Of a stretch of DNA of 64,000 bases, positions 1,968-62,200 are shown one piece after another (positions within the stretch are counted from its first letter, which is position 1; each line of letters starts with the position of its first letter). This DNA comes from Felis catus. Its lineage: Eukaryota. Below the pieces are notes generated by a model. That model had not been told where the DNA came from and made no database searches. It saw nothing but the letters and a program-made list of their open reading frames with translations. The stretch covers positions 76,138,001 to 76,202,000 of the forward strand of contig NC_058368.1 of the NCBI RefSeq assembly GCF_018350175.1. The letters are read 5' to 3'. Position numbers and translations under genes: made by a program.

Positions 1968-2095
1968 GGGCGCCTGGATGGCTTAGTTGGTAGAGCATAT
2001 GAGTCTTGATCTCAGGGTCATGAGTTCAAGCCCCATGTTGGGCATGGAGCCTACTCAAGTTTAAAAAAAAAAAAAAACATTAATAATTAAAAAAA
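1968..2095 (+). mobile_element. Short, older-type CAN-SINE
   Basis: gggcgcctgg head, B-box gagttcaagccc, A tail; TSD-like aagaacac flanks. Confidence 0.85.
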
Positions 2096-6231: not shown

Positions 6232-6261
6232 CTGATTCCCAAAATAGTATTTTTTGCTCCC
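6232..6261 (-). other. Putative 30-nt exon (GSKKYYFGNQ in phase 0)
   Basis: Acceptor aaatcctgcag|G, strong donor CAG|gtaagg. Adjacent to an L2-like remnant, so it may be cryptic. Confidence 0.25.
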
Positions 6262-6615: not shown

Positions 6616-7309
6616 CCTTAGTGATTTCTCAATAAATGTCTGTAGAACTGAGAAAGACCAGTTGAATGCTCTTGAATGCTCACAGGGTAATTCAATGACC
6701 CCATTTCCAGCTCTCTGCTCAATCCTCTATGGATCCTATGGAGAAGTTTTGCAAAGCATCATCTCTATTTCTGGTCCATGAAAGCGTGCTCAGCACATTT
6801 TTTGGTGTACAGGATGGCAGTGATTCCAATTAGCAATAAAGGTGATCCTGTAGATAATATACAAGGGGGGATGTGAGGCTACGACTGTGCTCAGCTCCCT
6901 GAGCCACTGGGCACTGTTTTTTGTCCCCAGAAAGCTTTAGACAAAAAGCTACAGACTTATTCAGAACCTCTGGCTTGATAAGGGCTGCTGGAAATTCTAC
7001 ACAATAAGAACAGTCTATACATAGATCTTTTTTTTTTTTCTTAAGCCACTGTTCCCTTCTACCACCATGACAGATATTATCTTTGATGTCTGGGAGTTAT
7101 ACTTACTTATTTTTATGTTACGGGAAGTCTAAATATAATCCTAGAAATCAGGGGGAGAGATTAAGAGTTTATTTTATTCCCCTCAAGAAAAATGTCCAAA
7201 TTTGTAAGTAGAGATAGCAAATGTTGTTACTGTCCTTGTTCACTAAAACATCCTGGAAGACTTGTCAACACATCCTAGTTTTGTTTTGTTGTGTTGGGTT
7301 TTGTCTTAC

Positions 7310-7816: not shown

Positions 7817-8095
7817 CTGTTTTAAAATGTCATCACTAGTAAATCTACTTTGTTTCATTTTAAAATGTGCACAGCAGTAATCCAGGGAAGTAGTAAGCCT
7901 TTTATTAGCCTCCAGTATTGCAATCCTAAAAGTACTTATATATAATAAATATATATTATGTTTATACATTTTGTCCTAACAGAAATGTCTATACAAAGCA
8001 ATTTTCATAATTTTTGTGATAAATTTCTATTCTACCACATTAAGAGCTGGAAATGATTTTTTCTTGGAAAGTTGACAGGAGCTGAACAAAATGCA

Positions 8096-8240: not shown

Positions 8241-8337
8241 ATTTAATTGTTTTCCCAAGTCCATTTACTCTGAAAACAAAATGGGTCAATATATATTTGA
8301 AGTAAATGAATATATACAACATTTTTACTTTTATTAC

Positions 8338-8373
8338 TCCCCATGTCTTCTCTTCTCTGCATTTTTATGATGC
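8338..8373 (-). other. Putative 36-nt exon; reads AS* (TAA) in the joined frame
   Basis: Strong acceptor tttattttctgtctttctaattag|G, weaker donor GGA|gtaata. Confidence 0.35.
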
Positions 8374-8952
8374 CTAATTAGAAAGACAGAAAATAAATAA
8401 ATAAAGGAAAATGAGTTTAGTCCCCATTCTCTACAGCTTATAAACTTCAACAATGTTGAACTCCCATAAGAATGAGGATCATTTTTACTAAGGATACAAT
8501 AGCTATATTCCCCAGAGCTATTGTGAATAATTTTATAGATCATAAATAAAAAAAAATTTAATGTATGCAAAATATGGCACAGGAAGAACTACAGCCATAT
8601 GTACAATTCACAAAAATAAATCACGTCATTTCTGGCTGTTAATTAAGTCTGTTTAAAAGCTTTTCTCTCATATTTAATGCATCTTTGAGAACAGCAGAAA
8701 AAAATCTCATTGACCAAAATGTGCTAATGTGCAGTTAATTTAAAAGAAAGATGGAAATTTTTGAATCACGATCTAAAATTAATTACTGATGGGGCAAGGT
8801 CTTTTTTCAGTTTGACAGAAATAGCCAATTATAATTTTGTACTTTAAATGCTGTTTCTTTGAAGCACACAGGCTTCGAAATTCGTCCAAAGCAACGTTAT
8901 TTCTCAAAAGCAAATTTACCTTGGAAAACATGTCTTCCCTTTGTTAGCTTAC

Positions 8953-8980
8953 CAATGGATTAAATCCTCTATAAAACAGT
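8953..8980 (-). CDS. Putative micro-exon, 28 nt (LFYRGFNPL)
   Basis: Strong acceptor ttatttttctttcacccaccacag|A, donor TTG|gtaagc. Confidence 0.5.
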
Positions 8981-9933
8981 CTGTGGTGGGTGAAAGAAAA
9001 ATAATTCCTTTTGATTGATTTTGAAACATATTTCAGGACTTGATGAAGACATGTTCTCTGGAAAACCCAGAAACCTTAACTCGCCGTTTCCTGAAGCTCC
9101 TGTCAACTTCCCCAGAAAACGTATTTTGAGTTCTTCATGTGATAGAACAGAAACTTTCTCTCTAAGATTTATGAAAAGAGAGGGACATAGACACTTGTGT
9201 TAGGACAGAAGGAAAAACTTCTCACATACTGACAGCTTATCAAGCATCCTAACAAAAGGTGTGGTTTCTCTCTTCAACTGGTTGTCCAACCATGTGCAAT
9301 CTGGAAGTGGCCCAGGAGCCTGTCTCTACTCAGCTCAGGGAGTCATAAGAGGGAAGACAAGAAATAATCCACGATTCAGAGACTGTGGCTGTTGAAACCA
9401 ATAGAACGTCCTGCCGTCCAGCTGGTTCGGCTGCAGGGCGTCCCAGCTACAGAGTCACAGACCCCAACATCTAAAATGCTCAGACCAATGTGGCTATTCC
9501 AGCATAAGAAACCTCACAGGGCTGCTGTCTGTTTTTCAGATTTTTCACTGTGCACAATTGTCAAATTCTGTACTACTTAATGTTTTAGCTTGTAAACGGA
9601 AAGGTTAGAAAGACATCCAACTGAAGGCAGGAGGAAAAGAGAGTTTGGGATTTTTTTGTTTTTGTTTTTAAGATGACTATGTCTGAATATTAGGCTTATT
9701 ATGCTTATTAGGCAACATCGTTCTAAGTAGCTCACATATTTTTACTGATTCACCCCTGCAACTAAATGACAGATGAGGAAATGAAGGCAACAGAGAGAGG
9801 CCGATAATTAGCCCAAGGACACATCTAAATAGCAGAGCATTTAAACCCAGCATCCCAGGCTTGGGGACAATGTGGTCCACAAATCCATTACACTTTCCTT
9901 TCGTGGTCAAATAAACTAATTTAATTAAAAAAA

Positions 9934-10133
9934 ATTTTAACATTTATTTAGTTTTGAGAGACAGAGCACAAGTGGGGGAGGGTCAGAGAGAGAGGGAGAC
10001 ACGGAGTCTGAAGCAGGCTCCAGGCTCCGAGCTCTCAGCGCAGAGCCCAATGCGGGGATCCAACCCTTGAAGCGTGAGATCATGACCTGAGTCAAAGTTG
10101 AACCCTTAACCAACTGAGCCACCCAGGCACCCC
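9934..10133 (-). mobile_element. CAN-SINE
   Basis: Full reverse copy. Confidence 0.92.
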
Positions 10134-10269
10134 TAATTATTATTATTATTTTTTTTAATTTCACTTAATTGAGTAGGTCTGGCATTATTCAGGTCCAACT
10201 TCAAAACTGGTTCCACAACCTATTTTATAATATAGTAACTGGGTATTGAGCAATTACCTAGGCTTTCTC

Positions 10270-10990
10270 TAAATTCATTCATTCATTCATTCATTCGAGC
10301 ATTCAAAATGATGTCAGACCCTCTGCTGAATCTGGGGCTATTTTCTGCACCCAGACAAGTATGATTCCTGCTCTGAACTCTGCACTCACATTCTAAGGGG
10401 AGAATAAGAACCAGCTGTCATACATGGGATGAACATAGCAAAAGGGGAAGCACATATTGATGTAATGCCAAGAAGCATGTGGGGGTGGGAGGAGGGCTGA
10501 GAAGCAGAGGAAGGGTCAACAGCAGCGAATGGGGATCATGCGGAGATTTGAAGGCAGGGAGAAGTTAACTAGTCAATGTTGTGGGGAGTGGCTGTATCCC
10601 AGGACTTAAAGACCAATGTGGCTGAGTGAATAGGACCAAAAGGGACCCAAAATTGGGCTGGCAAGAAGGCCAGGATGGCTTATTCCGGGCCCTGCAGCTG
10701 AACTGAGGACTGGGGACTTCATCAGGTGGGCAATGGGAAGCGATTCAAGGCTTAAGACCTGGGGAGGGTCCTGTGCCAATTATAGGTCTTAAAAGATGTC
10801 TCCGGTTCCAGCAGCAGGTGAGAAGAACAAATCCGTACACCTGCCGGGAGACTATGACGGTTGAGCAAGTTCAAGATGGTGGTGGCTCATCCCCAAGGGG
10901 GAAGGATTAGACAGACGCTCAGTGTGTAGAGTGAACAGGGCAGGTAGAAAAGCAATTGAATCAGCTGGGGGAGGGAAAGACAGAAAGAAG
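10270..10990 (-). mobile_element. Ancient L2-like remnant
   Basis: (ATTC)n reverse terminus followed by a purine-rich L2-like body. Confidence 0.55.
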
Positions 10991-11110
10991 CCAGTGACAC
11001 TTTCCTTGTGGACAGCATTCACGTATTACTCTGTTCCTTTCTGGATTAAGTCTCAAAACATGATACAGGCCAAAGGACTTATAAAACCACTTCCTTGACT
11101 TCAGCAAATA

Positions 11111-11330
11111 TTTTTTTTTAATTTTTTTTTCAACGTTTATTTATTTTGGGGACAGAGAGAGACAGAGCATGAACGGGGGAGGGGCAGAGAGAGAGGGAGA
11201 CAGAATCGGAAACAGGCTCCAGGCTCTGAGCCATCAGCACAGAGCCCGACGCGGGGCTCGAACTCACGGACCGCGAGATCGTGACCTGGCTGAAGTCGGA
11301 CGCTTAACCGACTGCGCCACCCAGGCGCCC
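11111..11330 (-). mobile_element. Young felid CAN-SINE (SINEC_Fc-like)
   Basis: CpGs intact; TSD acttcagcaaatattt. Confidence 0.96.
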
Positions 11331-11805
11331 CAACTTCAGCAAATATTTCTAATATCAAGTGTTTTTAACGTTCAACGGATGTTGGACATTCCACATTCAA
11401 CATCAACGGATGTTCAACATTCAAACGGATCTAGGTTTGTGTTCCCCTTTCTGTAAGTAAAGGCCTTGTGGAAGAAAAGTAAAATACTTTTGATTGTTGT
11501 CAGAAGACCCTCACGACACACACAATTAAACTAGCTTTACATTCTCTTGCATTCCCATATTTACATTTATATTTAACTTTGTAGGGATGAGTCAGAGCCT
11601 CACACGTGGTTGTACCGACTACACCACACAGCCACGCTCTGCCAGGACAACAGCTCTGGAAAGGGCATCACTGATTTACTTTCGTGGTTGTGTAAATTAA
11701 CTGTAAAAGATGATATGGTTCTTCAGCACTATTGAGTAATGTTGCTCAGACTTTGCTTGGGTGTCACTCAACTTCTACAGTAACATCGCTAGACAAATGA
11801 CTTAC

Positions 11806-11823
11806 TTCTCGCCTAAATAATGG
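11806..11823 (-). CDS. Putative micro-exon, 18 nt (CHYLGEK)
   Basis: Consensus donor GAA|gtaagt, acceptor cattttcatcgtattag|C. Including it removes the TG|A stop otherwise formed at the next junction. Confidence 0.35.
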
Positions 11824-12037
11824 CTAATACGATGAAAATGTCATTTCCTCAGTCATATAGACAAAATATTCAAGATTGAATAAATATTAATTGAGTCTTT
11901 GAGTGCCCTGAGATCAGGTTATTCATGCAAAGGTAAGAATGGCCAACCTAAGTGGAGCGATTCCTTAATGCCGGGCACCAAACTAAGAATTTCACACATG
12001 CTAACTCATTTACTTCTCACAAAAATGTAGATGGTGT

Positions 12038-12058
12038 TTTTTTTAATATTTTTAATTT

Positions 12059-12102
<44 letters not shown>

Positions 12103-12228
12103 CCGAAGCAGGCTCCAGGCTCTGAGCTGTCAGCACAGAGCCCGACACGGGGCTCAAACTCACGAACCACGAGATCATAACCGGAGCCAAAGTCAGACGC
12201 TTAACCAACTGAGCCACCCAGGTGCCCC
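12038..12228 (-). mobile_element. CAN-SINE within a MIR-like remnant
   Basis: Reverse copy with a long (AG)n. Confidence 0.92.
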
Positions 12229-12487
12229 TGGGCAATAATATTTAGATCTTTATTTTGTGGATGAGAAGTGAAGATCTAGAATTTAACTGTCCTGCCCAAA
12301 GTCAAAAGCTAGGAAGCTACGGAGAGAGCATTCAAAGCAACCATCCTGCTTTGACAGCCTACATTACCAGAAAAACATGGAGCTTCTCCATGGAGAATCA
12401 CTCCTCTGCCCAGACAGGGAAAGCAAAGTTCCAAACGTATATCTGAATAAGCACACCTTAAAATAATCCCATTTAATGTACATATAC

Positions 12488-12530
12488 CATGTCTCTTCCC
12501 TGGGAACGTCAACACTATAAAGAAGATCAT
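12488..12530 (-). CDS. Putative micro-exon, 43 nt (YDLLYSVDVPREET)
   Basis: Acceptor ctactctattttag|A, donor ATG|gtatat. Confidence 0.45.
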
Positions 12531-13061
12531 CTAAAATAGAGTAGCTGCCGCGACTCGAGTTAAGTCTATTGCCATTTGGTAGATAACCTTCTTATCATGC
12601 AGAAAAATACCAGGGCAGACAAATGGAGCACACAGGAAATGAGACCATCAGCAAAGAAGATAAAGAAGTTTGCACAAAGCACCTTTTTATAAATGGATGG
12701 CTGTCAGTTAAAAATCAATTTCCCGTGGACATGACTAAGAGCAAGCAAGAGGAAAGTAAACATGTTTAAACTATTGGAGAGTCCATAATTTAAATATAGA
12801 CTCTTCTGTTGAGTGGTAGTATGTATTGAATCAGTTCCACGGTGGCGATAACAAATGTCACGCTGCATTTCAGGAGGCACGAGAGAGAGGAAGCACGGGG
12901 AAGAAGAACGAATGCATCATTGATGCTGAATATTTTCGGTTGCCTAGAGCAAAGGCGGTTGGGGCTGCATAAAAACAGATCTTTGAAGATTTAATAGATT
13001 CCTCATTCTCTGTCCGTTGGTCCTCTCAGATTTGTCAAGAGTGAGCTCTGTTTTTCCTTAC

Positions 13062-13076
13062 ACTTAGGTTTTTTAA
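13062..13076 (-). CDS. Putative micro-exon, 15 nt (VKKPK), or 21 nt to 13082
   Basis: Acceptor after a T run, cttgccctaaaagccatag|T; donor AGT|gtaagg. Both acceptor choices keep the frame. Confidence 0.35.
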
Positions 13077-14486
13077 CTATGGCTTTTAGGGCAAGAAAAA
13101 AAAAAGATCGGGTCGAACTTAAACTAATGGGCAATAAAACTTGAAGATTAGAGATGCTGTTTTATTCAGCAGCTAGGTGAGGATCTGCAATGAATTCGAA
13201 CTTTAAAAATGCATGTTTTTCTAATGACACAAGCTGTATCACCATGACATGTTCTTAGAAGGGAAAGATTTGAAATTGCTGACATTTGCATGATAAATTG
13301 GAATGTGTGGAATAGGCAAGGGAAAGAAAATAAAGGCATAACTCAAAATTAAAGGTTACTTGTTAATACTAAAGGCAAAGTTCTAGCTGAATTGGAAGGG
13401 GCGGGGAGGGGGGGAAAGGGTTGCTAATTATTTTTTTTTTCCTAGAGATGGAATGTGAAACCCAGTGTAAAAAGTTCATGAATGAGGCCCAAGGATTGGC
13501 ATTACAGCAAATTCAATGATTTCTGAAATGCATGCTTCTACAAAGAACACACTATTATTCTGTCTAGACTTCATGGCACAGTAGAATAAACAAAGACTGA
13601 CAGCATCAATATATTTCATAAATACATTACTGGAATTTACATTATTTCTGACTATTAATATTTTCTGAGCTACCTTAGTAAAGCAATATGTACATCTTAT
13701 AAAATAAAATCTATTGGTAATGTCATTTGTTAGCAAAGAAATAGTAATGGCATTTATTTCTGAATATATTCATCTTCTTAAGTAAACCTAGGAAATCTGA
13801 ACTTGGACCCATAGATAATTCATTAGGTTCAGTCCATAGGTTTGCTTTCTTAGAGTCTTCTCATACGTATAATATCCTAACACAGTTTTTATAAGATTGC
13901 TTCAAGGGATTTTTTTTGTCCTGAAAGGGAAGGGTATATCTCATATAAAATAAACTATGATGGGTAACTTGTAAAGCTATCGATCGACACGGAGCTGAAA
14001 TAACTTCTAAAACATTTCTTCTGGAGATACACACATTTTTGTAACGAAACCACTAGCAACATATGGAAATCCACCAACAGGCCTCAATTTTTTCAGTCTA
14101 ACATTTCCTAGAGCTGTGGATACAGCGAAGACAACTAAAAATATAATTTTTGAGGACAATTAGTCACTCTCAGGAAATCTATAAATACCAATGGAAAGCA
14201 ATATGGCATAAACATTCTGCCCCACAGGAAAGATGAGCCATGTTATATTATATCATGTCATGATTTGCAACGTTGTGTGATGTAGACATGTTTCACCGGG
14301 TTTTGTTTTTTTTTTTTTTCTTTTACTTTTGTTTTTAGGAATCACTAAAAAGCAAATAGTCCTTCGGCTGAAAGGTCTGTGGAGGATGTAGGAATGCCCC
14401 TCGCCCCTCCTGCCCTGCACTGGGGAATCTTCCGGGAAGGTTCCTTCCTGTTCTCACTTGAGGATGAGGTTTTTGCCTGCTCACAC

Positions 14487-14515
14487 CTACGAAGTTCTTC
14501 CACAAATACGCCTTC
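14487..14515 (-). CDS. Putative micro-exon, 29 nt (KAYLWKNFV); 25- and 31-nt donor alternatives exist
   Basis: Acceptor ggtttgttttcatag|G after a ~150-nt T-rich tract; candidate donors TAG|gtgtga, TTC|gtaggt and GGT|gtgagc. Confidence 0.45.
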
Positions 14516-14823
14516 CTATGAAAACAAACCAAAAAAAAAAAAACCCACAAAAACAAAAAAAAAGGAGCTGAGCAAAACAAACAAACAAACAAACAAAATA
14601 AAAAAATAAAAGGAGCTGAACAAAACAAACCAACCCAAAACAAAAACAAACAAAAACAAAAGGAGCTGAGCACATGGAGTGTGCTTCTTTTGAAAAATAA
14701 AAGAACTAGCTTGATTTCTCAGAGAATTGGGGATACTGAGGAAGCTAAAGTTCACAGATACGATAAAATCACATATGCATCTATGCATGAGTGTGGCTAG
14801 TCATGAACCAGGTTATCTGTTAC

Positions 14824-14863
14824 CTCAGAACATGGTGTTGCTCTAGTTTCTTGCATATAGAAA
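14824..14863 (-). CDS. Putative micro-exon, 40 nt (ISICKKLEQHHVLR in the joined frame)
   Basis: Acceptor tatttttattatag|T, donor GAG|gtaaca. Confidence 0.45.
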
Positions 14864-15117
14864 CTATAATAAAAATATTTAGTGTAAAATAATTAGTAAT
14901 GTGTTGTGCCATAGGATATTGCCAATATTTCTTCACAGAACAGCAAGCCCATACAGTTCTTAATATTAGTTATTTAGAGGTGTGGTAGGTACAATAATAT
15001 ACTGCGTTTAGTTTTTCAATTTGTGCTCATACATGCTGTTTCTTTTATTACTCCTCAGGAATTAGTTTTTAGAATACGCTCTCCAAACTCCATTCATGAT
15101 TTAATAAGTGTTTATAC

Positions 15118-15148
15118 TCTTGGGTTCAAATCTATCCTGATTCTCTTC
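15118..15148 (-). CDS. Putative micro-exon, 31 nt (EENQDRFEPK)
   Basis: Acceptor ggttttcag|G; weak donor AGA|gtataa. An alternative donor CAT|gtatga would give a 116-nt exon (15033-15148) with in-frame stops. Confidence 0.35.
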
Positions 15149-15277
15149 CTGAAAACCATAGCCCCAAATTCATATTGTGCATATAACAAGATACAGGTAT
15201 GAGAAGAAAATTGTTATTGATCATTAAAATACAAACCAAAGGACTTAGGGAATTGATTTCCGACTCATCAATTAAAA

Positions 15278-15495
15278 CAGCAGTCCCAAACCATAGCCTA
15301 GTGACAAAATCCAACCCAATGCCTGTTTATATAAAGAAAGTGTTATTGGAACACAGACGCATTCATTCTTTTTCATTGGGTCTATGGCTGCTTTTGGGCT
15401 ACACAGAGCTCAATAGTTGCAACAGAAACTCTAGCCCTCAAAGTGTAAAACGTTTACCGCCTGGTTCTTCACAGAAAATGTTTGCTGCACCCTGA
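15278..15495 (+). mobile_element. MER58-like hAT-Charlie MITE
   Basis: ttattggaacacag...gtctatggctgctttt...cagaaaatgtttgctgcaccctg. Confidence 0.75.
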
Positions 15496-15554
15496 TTTAA
15501 CACATTGGTAACATTTGATAACTGGAAACCAAACTCTAATACTTTTATATCACG

Positions 15555-15960
15555 TCAGGGTAGACTAGGTGATACTGAAGTGACAAGAAACCCGAATGAT
15601 CATGGTTTAGAACAGCTGGTTTCCTGCTCATACTGATGGCCATCACTGGAGTCCGGGGCTTTGCCCCATGCAGTCATCAACCTCACTGGAGAGTCACATA
15701 GCAGGCGTGGATGGAACAGCTATCTGGAACCGTGCCAGTAACCTTGGCGGAGGAAACAGGAAACACAGTGTCTCAAAAACACACACTGGTCCTTGAAGCT
15801 TGTGATGGAAAATGACATAGGTCACTCACACATCCTTGATCGAAGTCTGTCACGTGGTCTGGTAGCACCTGAATTCAACAACGTAACAAAGGGGACGTCC
15901 TCCAATGAGGAGACGTGGGTACTGAATCACAGCCCTGTCAATGACTATAACTTCCTAGAG
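15555..15960. mobile_element. Old MLT1-like LTR remnant
   Basis: Degenerate MaLR-like segments. Confidence 0.45.
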
Positions 15961-16298
15961 GATGTTATGCCGGCCTCGAGTCTTCAAAAGGCACAGTAAC
16001 CAGTTCTGCCAAGAGGGACGGGGACACTTCTACTCCAGACCCTGCACGTATTACAGTCTGATGGGAGAGAGGAGAAAGAGAAGAAGCAAGAGAGAAGACT
16101 GGATGTGTGGCCAGGGTGGACCCTGGAGGGCCTTGATACAATACCAAGGAACTTCACCTTGACGCTGATCATCATGGGAAGCCAAGAACAATTTTCTTTT
16201 TTCTTTTATGCCACAGGCCTATTTGGCGATAGCTGATACAGCAACAGAACTCTTTGTAAAACCGCATGAAAAATATTCACGACTTGGTTTGTACCCAC

Positions 16299-16349
16299 CT
16301 GAGAATGTTTATTTTTAAAAAGCTCTACAGTGAGACTTTGATAGGAACC
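16299..16349 (-). CDS. Putative exon 2, 51 nt, phase 0-0 (GSYQSLTVELFKNKHSQ)
   Basis: Acceptor tcattttcaatctag|G, donor CAG|gtgggt; open and in frame with exon 1. Confidence 0.5.
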
Positions 16350-16622
16350 CTAGATTGAAAATGATGACTGAAAAGGATGCATCCAGCATTTACTGCGATC
16401 ATAGGTGCTTTCAAACGTACTCAGATGGAAGACAGATCTATGCCCTTCATTGCACACTCTCCATGGTGGGGCCCTGTTACTTCTCAACAGAACGTTCATT
16501 GCAAGAGGCCCATCTCCTCAGTTAAAAATTCATTGATGTATGTCTTCTTCATATTCAGTCCTAATTTTATTTCTAATTAGAAACCAGAGTGGATGTAAGA
16601 TAAAGAATATATGATAGATCTT

Positions 16623-16810
16623 GGGGTATCTGGGTGGCTCAGTCGCGATATCACAGCCTGTGAGTTCCAGCCCCATTATTGCGCTCTGTGCTGACAGCTC
16701 AGAGCCTGTAGCCTGCTTCGGATTCTGTGTCTCCCTCTCTCTCTGTTCGCCCTCTGTCTCTCTCTCTCTCTCTCTCAAAAATAAATAAACATTAACAATA
16801 TTTTTTAAAA
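16623..16810 (+). mobile_element. CAN-SINE with an internal deletion, in putative intron 1
   Basis: Long TSD aaagaatatatgatagatctt. Confidence 0.92.
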
Positions 16811-16944
16811 AGAATATATGATAGATCTTAAAAAGTCGAAAGTATGCTTAAAATATCCTTCCATTCACTTTCAAGTAATCTAAGCGTTGTTTCTTTTTTA
16901 AACCCCAACTCTGCTCAAACCAGACTTTTTTGGGAAAATCTTAC

Positions 16945-16998
16945 CTCTTGTGAACCTGTGGGTCTGCCCTCCCCGGGACTCTGGCTCTGGTCGTCCAT
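16945..16998 (-). CDS. Putative first coding exon part of an unidentified micro-exon gene (MDDQSQSPGEGRPTGSQE)
   Basis: ATG at 16998 (gcagATGG), 18 open codons, then donor GAG|gtaaga in phase 0. Confidence 0.5.
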
Positions 16999-17900
16999 CT
17001 GCTTCTGCTTGGCGCCTAGTGACCCATCTTCTTAACAGCCCATCTTGGGCCGGGTCGGCCTCCTGGCCCTCCGCCCTGCAGCCCTGTCTTCGGGACACCC
17101 TTGGCCAGAGGCTGGAGCCTGGGCCCGGCGGCGTCGAGTTTCCCAAAAGGCCAACAGGGCACCCCTGGAGCCGCAGGGTGCTGCTAGGTGGCGTTGGGTG
17201 GGCGGGGGCAGTAGGTGCAGGTCCGCATGGAGGTGCCAGAGGTTGGGCTCGGATGAGCTGAGCCGCAGGCGGGGCCCAAGGAAGGGCGGAATCCGGCCGG
17301 AGGCGCTGCTCTGCACGCACCCTTCCCCGGAGGAGCCGGGTCTCCAGGGACCTCGGGAGTTACACCTGCTGCCAGGGGGTCCTAGGAGCGGAAACACCTG
17401 CTGCCCTGCTGCCGCGGCCCCTCCTCGCAGGCTCATCTGTAAGGACTCTGGCTCCTGCCACTTGTCACGTCCCCAGTCCTTGTGGGCGCCCGGCCCACAC
17501 TGCGCAAAGTCACAGGCGAGGCCCGCTCAGGTGCAGGAGTGCCGCTCTGCGGTGAAGACGGTGCCAGGGCGGGCCCTCTGCGGCCAGGCGGGGCAGTGAA
17601 GTGCGCATGCGCGGGCCGCCCAGGGGGCAGGCGCCCAGGACGGGGTGGGCGGAGGATGCTGGGAGCGGGGGCAGCGCTGGTGCAGAACCAGGGGTGCCGG
17701 CGGCTTCCAAGGCCAGCCAGGCGCACGTGCTGGCCCATAGCACAGCCTTGGCGCCGCTGGTTCCTCCCGTCAGCTTGGAGCTTTCTAGAATTCATCCCAG
17801 AAGATCCTCGCTGTTTCTCCAGCCTTTCTTCTCCAAAACCGCCTCTGGAATGGAGGGCTACCGACCCTATGCTACATACGGGGTCGGGTAGAGGGTCCAT
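16970..17900 (-). promoter_or_regulatory. CpG-island promoter, most likely driving the minus-strand spliced transcript to its left
   Basis: Only long GC- and CpG-rich non-repeat stretch in the window. Contains an NRF1 palindrome TGCGCATGCGCG (17602-17613), several GGGCGG GC boxes, a CACGTG E-box (~17724) and a CRE-like GTCACGTC (~17464). A strong minus-strand donor GAG|gtaaga sits at its left edge (16945/16944). Confidence 0.85.
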
Positions 17901-59268: not shown

Positions 59269-62200
59269 ACTAAGGTAACCATTTTTTTTTCCAACAATGA
59301 TATCCTACTGTCTTGAAAATAGACAAGTTATCTCCTCAAAGGTAGGTAATTATTCACCAGATTGGAATTATTCACAGGGAATAGTCATGCTAGGTTATCT
59401 CATCTCCCTATCTATCCAACTGTGTCACAAAAGATAGAGGGATCTACCACCTATTTCTATCTATCTAGATCTGTCTATCTATCTCTCTATCATCACTGAC
59501 TTGAAGGGAGGAATTCATCCAATTGCTAAGTTACTGGTGTATTATGTCAACATTATTTGAGCACATACAACATATGATGACTACAAGACGAATTCCAAGA
59601 GATCCAAAACATAGATATACATAAGGATTAAAAAAAAACCTCTTTCACTTGCTTGAAACATACATCTAACATGCATTATAAGAGAATAACACTAAAACAA
59701 CTGCTAAAAGGGAAAGATAATGTGGTTTGTGTTTTTAAGGCTGGTGAAGTGAAACCGTGAGAGTGGAGAAGGAGCAAAAGAAACTGTAACTGGCTGTGAT
59801 CAATGAACTATAAACACCGCTGCACTTGGACCCACCAGAAGATAAGGTTTGAAAGCAGTCACAACAGGAAAGTCAAGTACACAAACCAACCCTCAGAGGT
59901 GGGATGAATGAGGGTTGTCGGGCTAAACTTCTTCTAAGGTCCAGACCTGTACTTGCTCCCAGAGCTGGACTTGGAAGGTGAGTTAGTGCCCCTGCTCTGA
60001 GCTGCCCTGAGACGGGGGCTGTTCACCTATATACTCTCTTCTCGCCAGTTCTCAAACTGGACATGAGGAGGACTGAGCTCCTACAAGTCCTGTAATTCTC
60101 AGGCTTGACTCGGTTCAACAGGGGAAGGTGTCCTTCCTTTGTTCCTTTCCTGCCTGGGTTTCCTGCTATAGAGGGTAATACAGCCAAGGAGGGGACTGGT
60201 CTTCGGTAAGGGATGAAGAAGAAATTTCTGGACACTCCTATGAAGATTCAGTCTTCAACTCCAGAAACTTTCAGGTCATCTGTGACTACCTTTCTCTAGT
60301 CCCCCCCCCCGCCATCAATTTGTCCTGAAGGGTGTCTCTCTAATTTCCCACAACTTCTTTTATTCGAGTTGCTTGGTCCTGGGCTCAATGCCCACCACAC
60401 TCCAGACCCCCCATATGGATGGCCATCTATTCTCCTCACTGAGGCCAGGATCACCTACCCAGGTCCAAATTCACACAAGTAATTATTATGATTAAAGGTT
60501 CCTCCTTAATGATTCCCCTCATTCCACAGAGATTAACATAATTGTCAAGAGTAATTGTTTTTATTCAGACTGAGTCATGCAACCCTAACACGGTCACTAA
60601 ATCTTTCCATTCCTCACCTGTAAAATGAGAACCATTCATTCACTCACTTACTCATTTAGAAATATTTCCTGAGATCCTACTATAAGGCAGATGTCGCTCT
60701 ATTCATGAGGGACACATCAATGAACTAGACCCACCCCCCGCAAAGCGTATGTTCTCATGGGTTCCAAAGAGAACAGGGATGAGCCCCTTGCCCTGGAGGG
60801 ACTCAAAGCTACCATAGGAACTGACAAGATATGTCATTATTTAGGTAAACCAAAACAATTTAAAATGCATAAAATCTCTTCCATCCTCAATATTTGCCCA
60901 AAGAAGTTATGAATTCTGCATGTAAATAGGGTAAAGATGTGCAAAAGAATCTGAGTGCGCTTAAACCCCCCTGGTGGAAACCCAGCTCACCTCGTGAGAA
61001 ACTGAGAGCAACTAGCTCGTAAAGTTGTTGAATCAAGTCATTAACGACACATTCCGTGCAAGGCGCCCAGCATGGAGCTGGACGCACAGTAAGAATTCAC
61101 TAAATCTTAATCGGGACTAGAGCACTTCTTCAACCTGATTTCAGCCCACCTTGCGAACCCCGTCCTCAGCTAACTGACCCTACCTCTCTCCCCCACGAAA
61201 CCACCAGCCCAGCCTCAGGGGATCAGAGCTGCCTGGCCCTGCCATATCTTTCATATTCTGCTCCTTACTTACACTTTCTCCCTTCTGCTCAACAGAAGCC
61301 TCAAAATGAGGAGAATTTTACTTGCTTGGGGGTGGGGGGACACCCTTATAAGGAGCTTGCAAATCGGAACAGTGAAACCATTTTTATATTGGATGAAACT
61401 GAATGGTTCAGAATTTGATTTTCATTCATGCTGCTGATGGGCACAGAAGATGGGTAATAGAAATGCGGCCAGATACCTGTTTTGTTTGCCTCATATGGAG
61501 CTTTACAACATTCCGTGCGAATGCCTTCACGTGCGGTGAGTGTTTTCCATTCAGCCAACCTCCTCACTCCCCCACCCCCGGATCTTTGGTCTTATTCCTA
61601 GAAATCTGTGCTCATTGAATTTCCTCCTGTCCCCTGTGGTCATCTAAGCTTGCCCATCTCTGAGATAGTTCGATAAATGATAACCCTCTCACAGCCAATG
61701 TATTTGGTTAAACAAAATGGTACCATTTCTGTTTGCCAAGACTTCTCCAACACAGAATAGAAACCCGGAGAGTGTGGTCTGGACTTGTTTAAATTTAGAC
61801 TTGCTAGAAATACCAGTAGGTATGTCTAACGAGATGCTCAGTCCTCTTGCTGTCCATGCCGTACAAAGGGGAGTCTTACCAAACTTTAGACTTGGGTCAA
61901 GTTTTTTTGAAGGAAAATTGATTTCCAAGAATCAAGCAAGAAACACAACTGCGGCATAATACACTAGATTCTTATTCCCATTGCAAATAATACCGTAAAG
62001 CCTAAAACCTCCCTGTAACATCTTGGATAACCATGAAAAACATATCTAAGTACAAAGAGAAACATTTTCTAAATTATCCTGTTTTCAAATACACAGTATA
62101 AAGCTAGTATACCGGAGAGGGATTCCCTGGGAGGGCTATTTTGGGGGGTTTGATCATAAAGCTTCCAGGTGCCCTCCAATTATATTAGACATTTTATATC

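Follow-up and report, generated by a model that had tools for sequence, protein, structure and literature searches.

A candidate micro-exon gene below a repeat-derived CpG island in a gene desert of the domestic cat

The window considered here is a 64-kb stretch of the Felis catus genome (NCBI RefSeq assembly GCF_018350175.1, contig NC_058368.1, positions 76,138,001-76,202,000). On its minus strand, below a CpG island, lie nine short segments that may be the exons of a small protein-coding gene. The initial annotation had proposed these segments from the sequence, and all nine are present where it placed them, flanked by AG on the 5' side and GT on the 3' side in every case (9/9) and together summing to 309 nt. 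When joined, they leave one of the three frames without a stop, and this frame encodes the 103-codon peptide that had been proposed. Two further statements of the annotation also hold: the chain escapes a listing of open reading frames (ORFs), as no stop-to-stop frame of at least 90 aa covers it, and the exons occupy non-repeat gaps, with none of the nine overlapping the local repeat mask. Genome-wide DNA searches, one of which scored 40 of 467 candidates, found no repeats in exons 1-6, 8 and 9, and the status of exon 7 was judged from the local repeat mask alone. The genome searches revealed no retrocopy or paralogue of the chain; a second genome match with the look of a retrocopy was rejected as one of many copies of a dispersed repeat. 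The analysed span was 264 kb, comprising the window and 100 kb on each side, and by eye the two flanks contained no long frames resembling coding exons. The short interspersed elements of the sequence mark the genome as felid. Splice sites were scored with a simple weight matrix built from human frequencies rather than with MaxEntScan. The features are collected in Table 1.

Table 1 Features of the proposed gene and its surroundings, in window coordinates
Feature	Coordinates	Strand	Remarks
Proposed exon 1, coding part, ATG to donor	16945-16998	-	Donor among the best 0.2% of GT sites
Proposed exon 2, 51 nt	16299-16349	-	Both sites strong; sole open frame is that of the chain
Proposed exon 3, 31 nt	15118-15148	-	AG-free zone 93 nt; weak donor
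Proposed exon 4, 40 nt	14824-14863	-	AG-free zone 65 nt
Proposed exon 5, 29 nt	14487-14515	-	AG-free zone 50 nt; rival donor would give 14458-14515
Proposed exon 6, revised to 21 nt	13062-13082	-	Acceptor 4.0; frame same as in the 15-nt form
Proposed exon 7, 43 nt	12488-12530	-	Stronger rival donor would give 12457-12530
Proposed exon 8, 18 nt	11806-11823	-	AG/GT-bounded
Proposed exon 9, 28 nt	8953-8980	-	Closes at donor
Candidate terminal exon	8330-8373	-	Acceptor 8373, in-frame TAA 8365-8367, AATAAA 8330-8335; predicted
Rival next exon	7107-7140	-	Both sites strong; stops in three frames; protein would end at 108 codons
CpG-island-like promoter region from old dispersed repeat	17045-17836	n/a	GC 0.69, CpG observed/expected 0.59
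NRF1-type motif	17603-17612	n/a	Single occurrence in 264 kb
E-box	17724-17729	n/a	Near the NRF1-type motif, plus six GC boxes
Upstream ATG opening three codons in strong context, same frame as proposed start	17032-17043	-	One TAA (17032-17034) intervenes
Second three-codon upstream ORF, strong context	start 17027	-	29 nt ahead of proposed start

The chain begins on the minus strand below the sole clear CpG island of the 264 kb, apart from a marginal window at a distance of 101 kb; in the island, two 500-nt windows reach a CpG observed/expected ratio (o/e) of 0.61-0.63. A genome search returned a 67% match to the island elsewhere, which in turn led to at least 30 copies. All eight sister copies tested could be aligned with the island, their 61-70% lying well beyond the level of shuffles, and CpG o/e was 0.53-0.66 in the island versus 0.03-0.16 in seven of these copies and 0.45 in the remaining one. 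The island is derived from an old dispersed repeat, and its CpGs have been kept in this copy. Retained CpGs imply germ-line hypomethylation, which would be expected of the island. Repeat-derived CpG islands are described as hypomethylated in male germ cells in an excerpt of PMC4509998; the present island shares with them a dispersed-repeat origin and kept CpGs, but its element is old (61-70% between copies). The sister copy with o/e 0.45 (L029) may be another recycled promoter. One copy of the island repeat is embedded in an old LINE-1 (locus L023, 1486-1843), between ORF1-like and ORF2-like remains; visual inspection of the flank of one copy had suggested a link between the repeat and LINE-1 ORF1, which was not confirmed.

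Because the promoter-like island is followed by a strong first donor and a strong exon 2, a minus-strand spliced transcript is likely. Both strands of the 264 kb together hold five loci at which a very strong donor has a strong micro-exon less than 1 kb beyond it, one of them being the exon 1-exon 2 pair. When the best two donors in the 1.4 kb below the NRF1-type motif were compared with controls, 26 of 750 equalled them on the minus strand, versus 150 of 750 for the plus strand. Further along the chain, seven of the nine donors rank within the top 6%, while the exon-7 donor chosen in the initial annotation ranks in the top 14% of GT sites. The AG preceding the exon-1 ATG scores -3.8 and is not acceptor-like. 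All eight internal exons are at most 51 nt long and carry canonical AG/GT boundaries; three are symmetric and five shift the frame. The introns span 254-2825 nt with a median of ~630 nt, and the one between proposed exons 2 and 3 contains an old dispersed repeat (15287-15507), of which there are many copies at 70-76%.

Two parts of the proposed chain call for revision. Exon 6 is better drawn as 21 nt than as the 15 nt first proposed (13062-13076), because the acceptor of the longer form scores 4.0 versus -2.7 for the shorter, which falls in the top 51% of all AG; the 21-nt exon has a single open frame, identical with that of the chain. At the 3' end, the model as first drawn is incomplete and has no stop, because exon 9 ends at a donor. 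With the acceptor at 8373, a stop would follow two codons on and AATAAA 30 nt later, for a total of 107 codons. Of the 688128 site combinations at the proposed loci, 6144 are stop-free, and the top scorer among them is the annotated chain with the 21-nt exon 6. The peptide is improbable exactly as written, in view of the changes needed at exon 6 and the 3' end. A 30-nt candidate exon at 6232-6261 on the minus strand has the strongest donor of the area (12.0), is open in three frames and may be part of a longer form. Exon 9 and the 8373 acceptor are flanked by the arms of an old inverted repeat (9095-9210 and 7969-8083, 76% identity), with no further copy found in the genome and a pairing energy of -103 kcal/mol versus -29 for 200 shuffles. 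It could loop exon 9 and the 8373 acceptor out of a read-through RNA, or represent the ends of a decayed transposon.

To compare the chain with chance, we used sets of matched pseudo-exons and a dynamic program that joins nine unmasked exons, each 15-60 nt long, into the best-scoring chain without a stop in a given control region. Placed at their best-scoring sites, exons 2-5 are stop-free with no loss of score, a result equalled by 186 of 3000 matched pseudo-exon sets. With exon lengths fixed, the stop-free frame of exons 3-9 was equalled by 494 of 20000. The AG-free zones, which lie outside the weight-matrix scoring, are longer than those of score-matched sets (450 of 10000 equal, or 100 of 10000 when exon 6 is taken as 21 nt). 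Keeping the top stop-free chain open costs 6.7 score units, and 268 of 3000 pseudo-exon sets did equally well (eight loci). The best chain of the region scores 124.6, equalled in 14 of 248 controls, and shares only part of the proposed exons. Taken together, these tests leave modest support, at 1-9% each. Among control chains, the top scores (up to 139.6) come from C1 ~76,264,000-76,274,000 on the plus strand (window coordinates 126,000-136,000), and may be due to chance or mark a further unannotated exon cluster.

The wider position of the locus was approached through its neighbours. By Pfam matches, an SBF-family exon lies 2382 kb before the island and an ephrin exon 726 kb after it, placing the island at fraction 0.766 between them. 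From synteny we take these matches to be SLC10A2 and EFNB2. In human coordinates, the same fraction would fall at one end of LINC00343, presumably a plus-strand gene running away from this point. On this position and these coordinates, the site is probably the stretch of gene desert that holds human LINC00343 (13q33.2). By interpolation the two probably share the same desert stretch, and LINC00343 is described as testis-specific; LINC00343 differs in being annotated as non-coding, and the likeness is one of position rather than of compared sequence. In excerpts of the respective reports, LINC00343 is included with DAOA in a 13q33.1-q33.2 deletion (PMC4852408), lies near 106.45 Mb of build 37 (PMC5964872), appears among spermatogenesis long non-coding RNAs (lncRNAs; PMC4750114), and is testis-specific and part of a sperm-retrieval biomarker panel (PMC10116801). 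The literature searched contained no description of a coding gene at this site. No LINC00343 rows occurred in the scanned portions of the supplements of PMC10195156, PMC5577775, PMC6886504 and PMC5793779, which comprised all but files 1 and 8 of PMC6886504, file 1 of PMC5793779 and part of the chr13 rows.

Our leading reading, which we hold tentatively, is that the locus is a real, single-copy coding gene of short exons, as yet unconfirmed. The island, the strong first donor and the strong exon 2 lend partial support to the gene of micro-exons put forward in the initial annotation. Under this reading, the island would be unmethylated in the germ line and fire downward, so that a minus-strand transcript would start from it in germ cells, probably male ones; the testis is the probable tissue, judging from position. 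Splicing would begin from the strong donors of the first two exons, and the short introns and long AG-free zones may help to define the tiny exons, in line with the account of constitutive micro-exons in PMC4317164. About ten short exons would be spliced to encode a soluble protein of ~107 residues. They would be used together, as constitutive rather than cassette exons, because five of the eight internal exons shift the frame and skipping would mostly destroy the product. The predicted protein has a mass of 12.5 kDa, is hydrophilic and lacks a signal peptide or membrane helix (maximum 19-residue hydropathy 0.43). Its first 45 residues are polar and probably disordered, and its second half is predicted to be basic/aromatic. 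As a long shot, its composition and class suggest a small intracellular binding partner in spermatids.

The proposed gene can be set beside several known systems. C12orf54, CCDC7 and TSBP1, small testis-restricted mammalian genes of short exons, would resemble it in class only, with a short hydrophilic product, many short exons and no domain. Constitutively spliced mammalian micro-exons of at most 51 nt have short flanking introns (955 nt), strong conserved sites and a high density of splicing enhancers, according to an excerpt of Li et al. 2015 (PMC4317164), and 94% of mammalian coding exons are reported, again in excerpt, to exceed 51 nt. All eight internal segments of the cat chain fall within the same limit, and its introns are comparably short (~630 versus 955 nt). 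In contrast to those exons with their strong, conserved sites, the chain has at least one weak donor and is known from sequence alone, and a gene almost wholly of micro-exons is rarer. The micro-exon genes (MEGs) of schistosomes, as excerpted from PMC4671649, encode secreted proteins, with 79% symmetric exons under 36 nt and combinatorial skipping. The likeness to MEGs lies in a small protein made from a run of micro-exons and overlooked by standard annotation; unlike them, the cat chain has three symmetric exons of eight, lacks a signal peptide and is not combinatorial.

Several results weigh against a coding gene. Candidate micro-exons occur at background density, with 12 on the minus strand between 7 and 17 kb compared with 12.7 per 10 kb over the 264 kb around it. 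Stop-free nine-exon chains scoring at least as well as the annotated one (96.7) were obtained in 55 of 64 control regions when these were tiled and in 207 of 248 when they were sliding, so that the existence of such a chain is by itself weak evidence; as a general lesson, most 8-kb stretches of this genome allow one to be assembled. When the best site is chosen at each exon, stops appear, and the donor of exon 3 ranks only in the top 56% of all GT. Purine, GC and CpG contents resemble those of pseudo-exons (1105, 2404 and 1382 of 3000), and GAA content, a proxy for splicing enhancers, was equalled by 270 of 3000 pseudo-exon sets. Enrichment at the level of the region appeared under only two of five threshold sets (15 and 9, versus 75, 135 and 53, of 244). 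The figures of 1-9% overstate the case because the loci were hand-picked. Around the island, donors within 700 nt are alike on both strands (54 versus 60 of 752 controls), and the strand skews contradict one another. Finally, upstream ATGs 45 and 29 nt ahead of the proposed start would dampen translation.

Nor did RNA data reveal the spliced reads that the initial annotation had called for. Reads from 4 of 24 runs, of unspecified tissue and with 1-2% of the raw runs read, were placed on 8300-12560 alone, a span that takes in the candidate terminal exon as well as exons 7-9. In all four, exons 7-9 showed no junction and a depth near zero; in the two raw-read runs it ranged from 0 to 0.18 over exon bins. 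Reads from short interspersed elements (SINEs) swamp the region, and the 15 of 409 read joints that were shown all lie between SINE copies. One RNA contig spans exon 9 unspliced. Coverage of 8300-8585 was low and in both orientations, and was not used as evidence. Across the 24 runs, word shares follow run size, with no sign of specific expression. The RNA outcome is one of no support and weak refutation.

Protein searches likewise returned no homologues (3/3), although their power was weak, each using a single exon with intron read-through. The exon-2 frame in two lengths yielded 3 and 0 candidates and the exon-7 frame 1, none of which was scored, and even a perfect target would reach only E 3.6 (exon 2) or 830 (exon 7), leaving the searches nearly blind. 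Pfam matched none of three exon frames, and the ESM Atlas gave no match to exon 2; the best Atlas hit overall (0.84, fatty acyl-CoA reductase tails) was rejected as below the 0.9 mark. Three metagenome loci at 46% over 27 residues, from 589 pattern matches, were rejected as chance because they matched mostly on intron-encoded residues. A Dpy-30/RIIa docking domain was rejected as well: with profiles from 6, 6 and 11 domains of this genome, the models score between -0.3 and 0.4 bits, which is near the 5% point of 2000 shuffles and does not fall at the C-terminus that had prompted the idea. Rfam detected nothing at the locus. Elsewhere in the window it identified a Y RNA-like copy (59735-59836, minus strand, 43.6 bits) and a tRNA-like match (1972-2044, plus strand, 31.6 bits), the latter probably a SINE head.

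Of the alternatives, the one that survives best, though we regard it as unlikely, is that the island drives a spliced minus-strand non-coding RNA or a decayed former gene, in which the 103-codon frame would be incidental or a remnant. Neither the promoter features nor the strong pair formed by exons 1 and 2 requires a coding gene, the strong candidate exon at 7107-7140 is stopped in all three frames, and the probable human counterpart region has a testis-specific lncRNA (excerpt of PMC10116801). From an ATG at 17436 on the minus strand, a 134-codon frame (17035-17436) runs through the island in the frame of the chain and ends one stop short of it; this ATG and that at 17043 are both in frame with the proposed start, with a single TAA between, so that a truncated or decayed gene is possible. 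In the remnant version, a longer frame would have been cut by the TAA at 17032-17034, and exon 1, exon 2 and some others would still be used. Against this explanation, exons 2-5 at their best sites are open more often than pseudo-exons, and exon 2 and the 21-nt exon 6 are each open only in the frame of the chain. Somewhat less probable still is chance, with pseudo-exons lying beside an island that is silent, enhances the ephrin gene 726 kb off or fires on the plus strand: the background density of candidates, the many equal controls, the pseudo-exon-like composition, the lack of RNA support and the presumed plus-strand orientation of LINC00343 all fit it, but the donor pair, the AG-free zones and the frame compatibility, partly independent and at 1-9% each, argue against it.

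If the short-exon coding gene is real, it would be an ordinary kind of gene rather than a new kind of system. It would add a small gene to the interval between the bile-acid-transporter and ephrin genes, a desert believed to be free of coding genes, and would exemplify a gene shape that gene finders limited by exon length miss. In its fullest form, to which we give little credence, the proposal is of a mammalian coding gene built almost wholly of exons of at most 54 nt, driven by an ancient-repeat promoter, intact and unannotated in cats, with the non-coding testis locus around LINC00343 as its human remnant. If true, it would give a coding history to the region of a human lncRNA that, according to an excerpt of PMC10116801, belongs to a sperm-retrieval biomarker panel.

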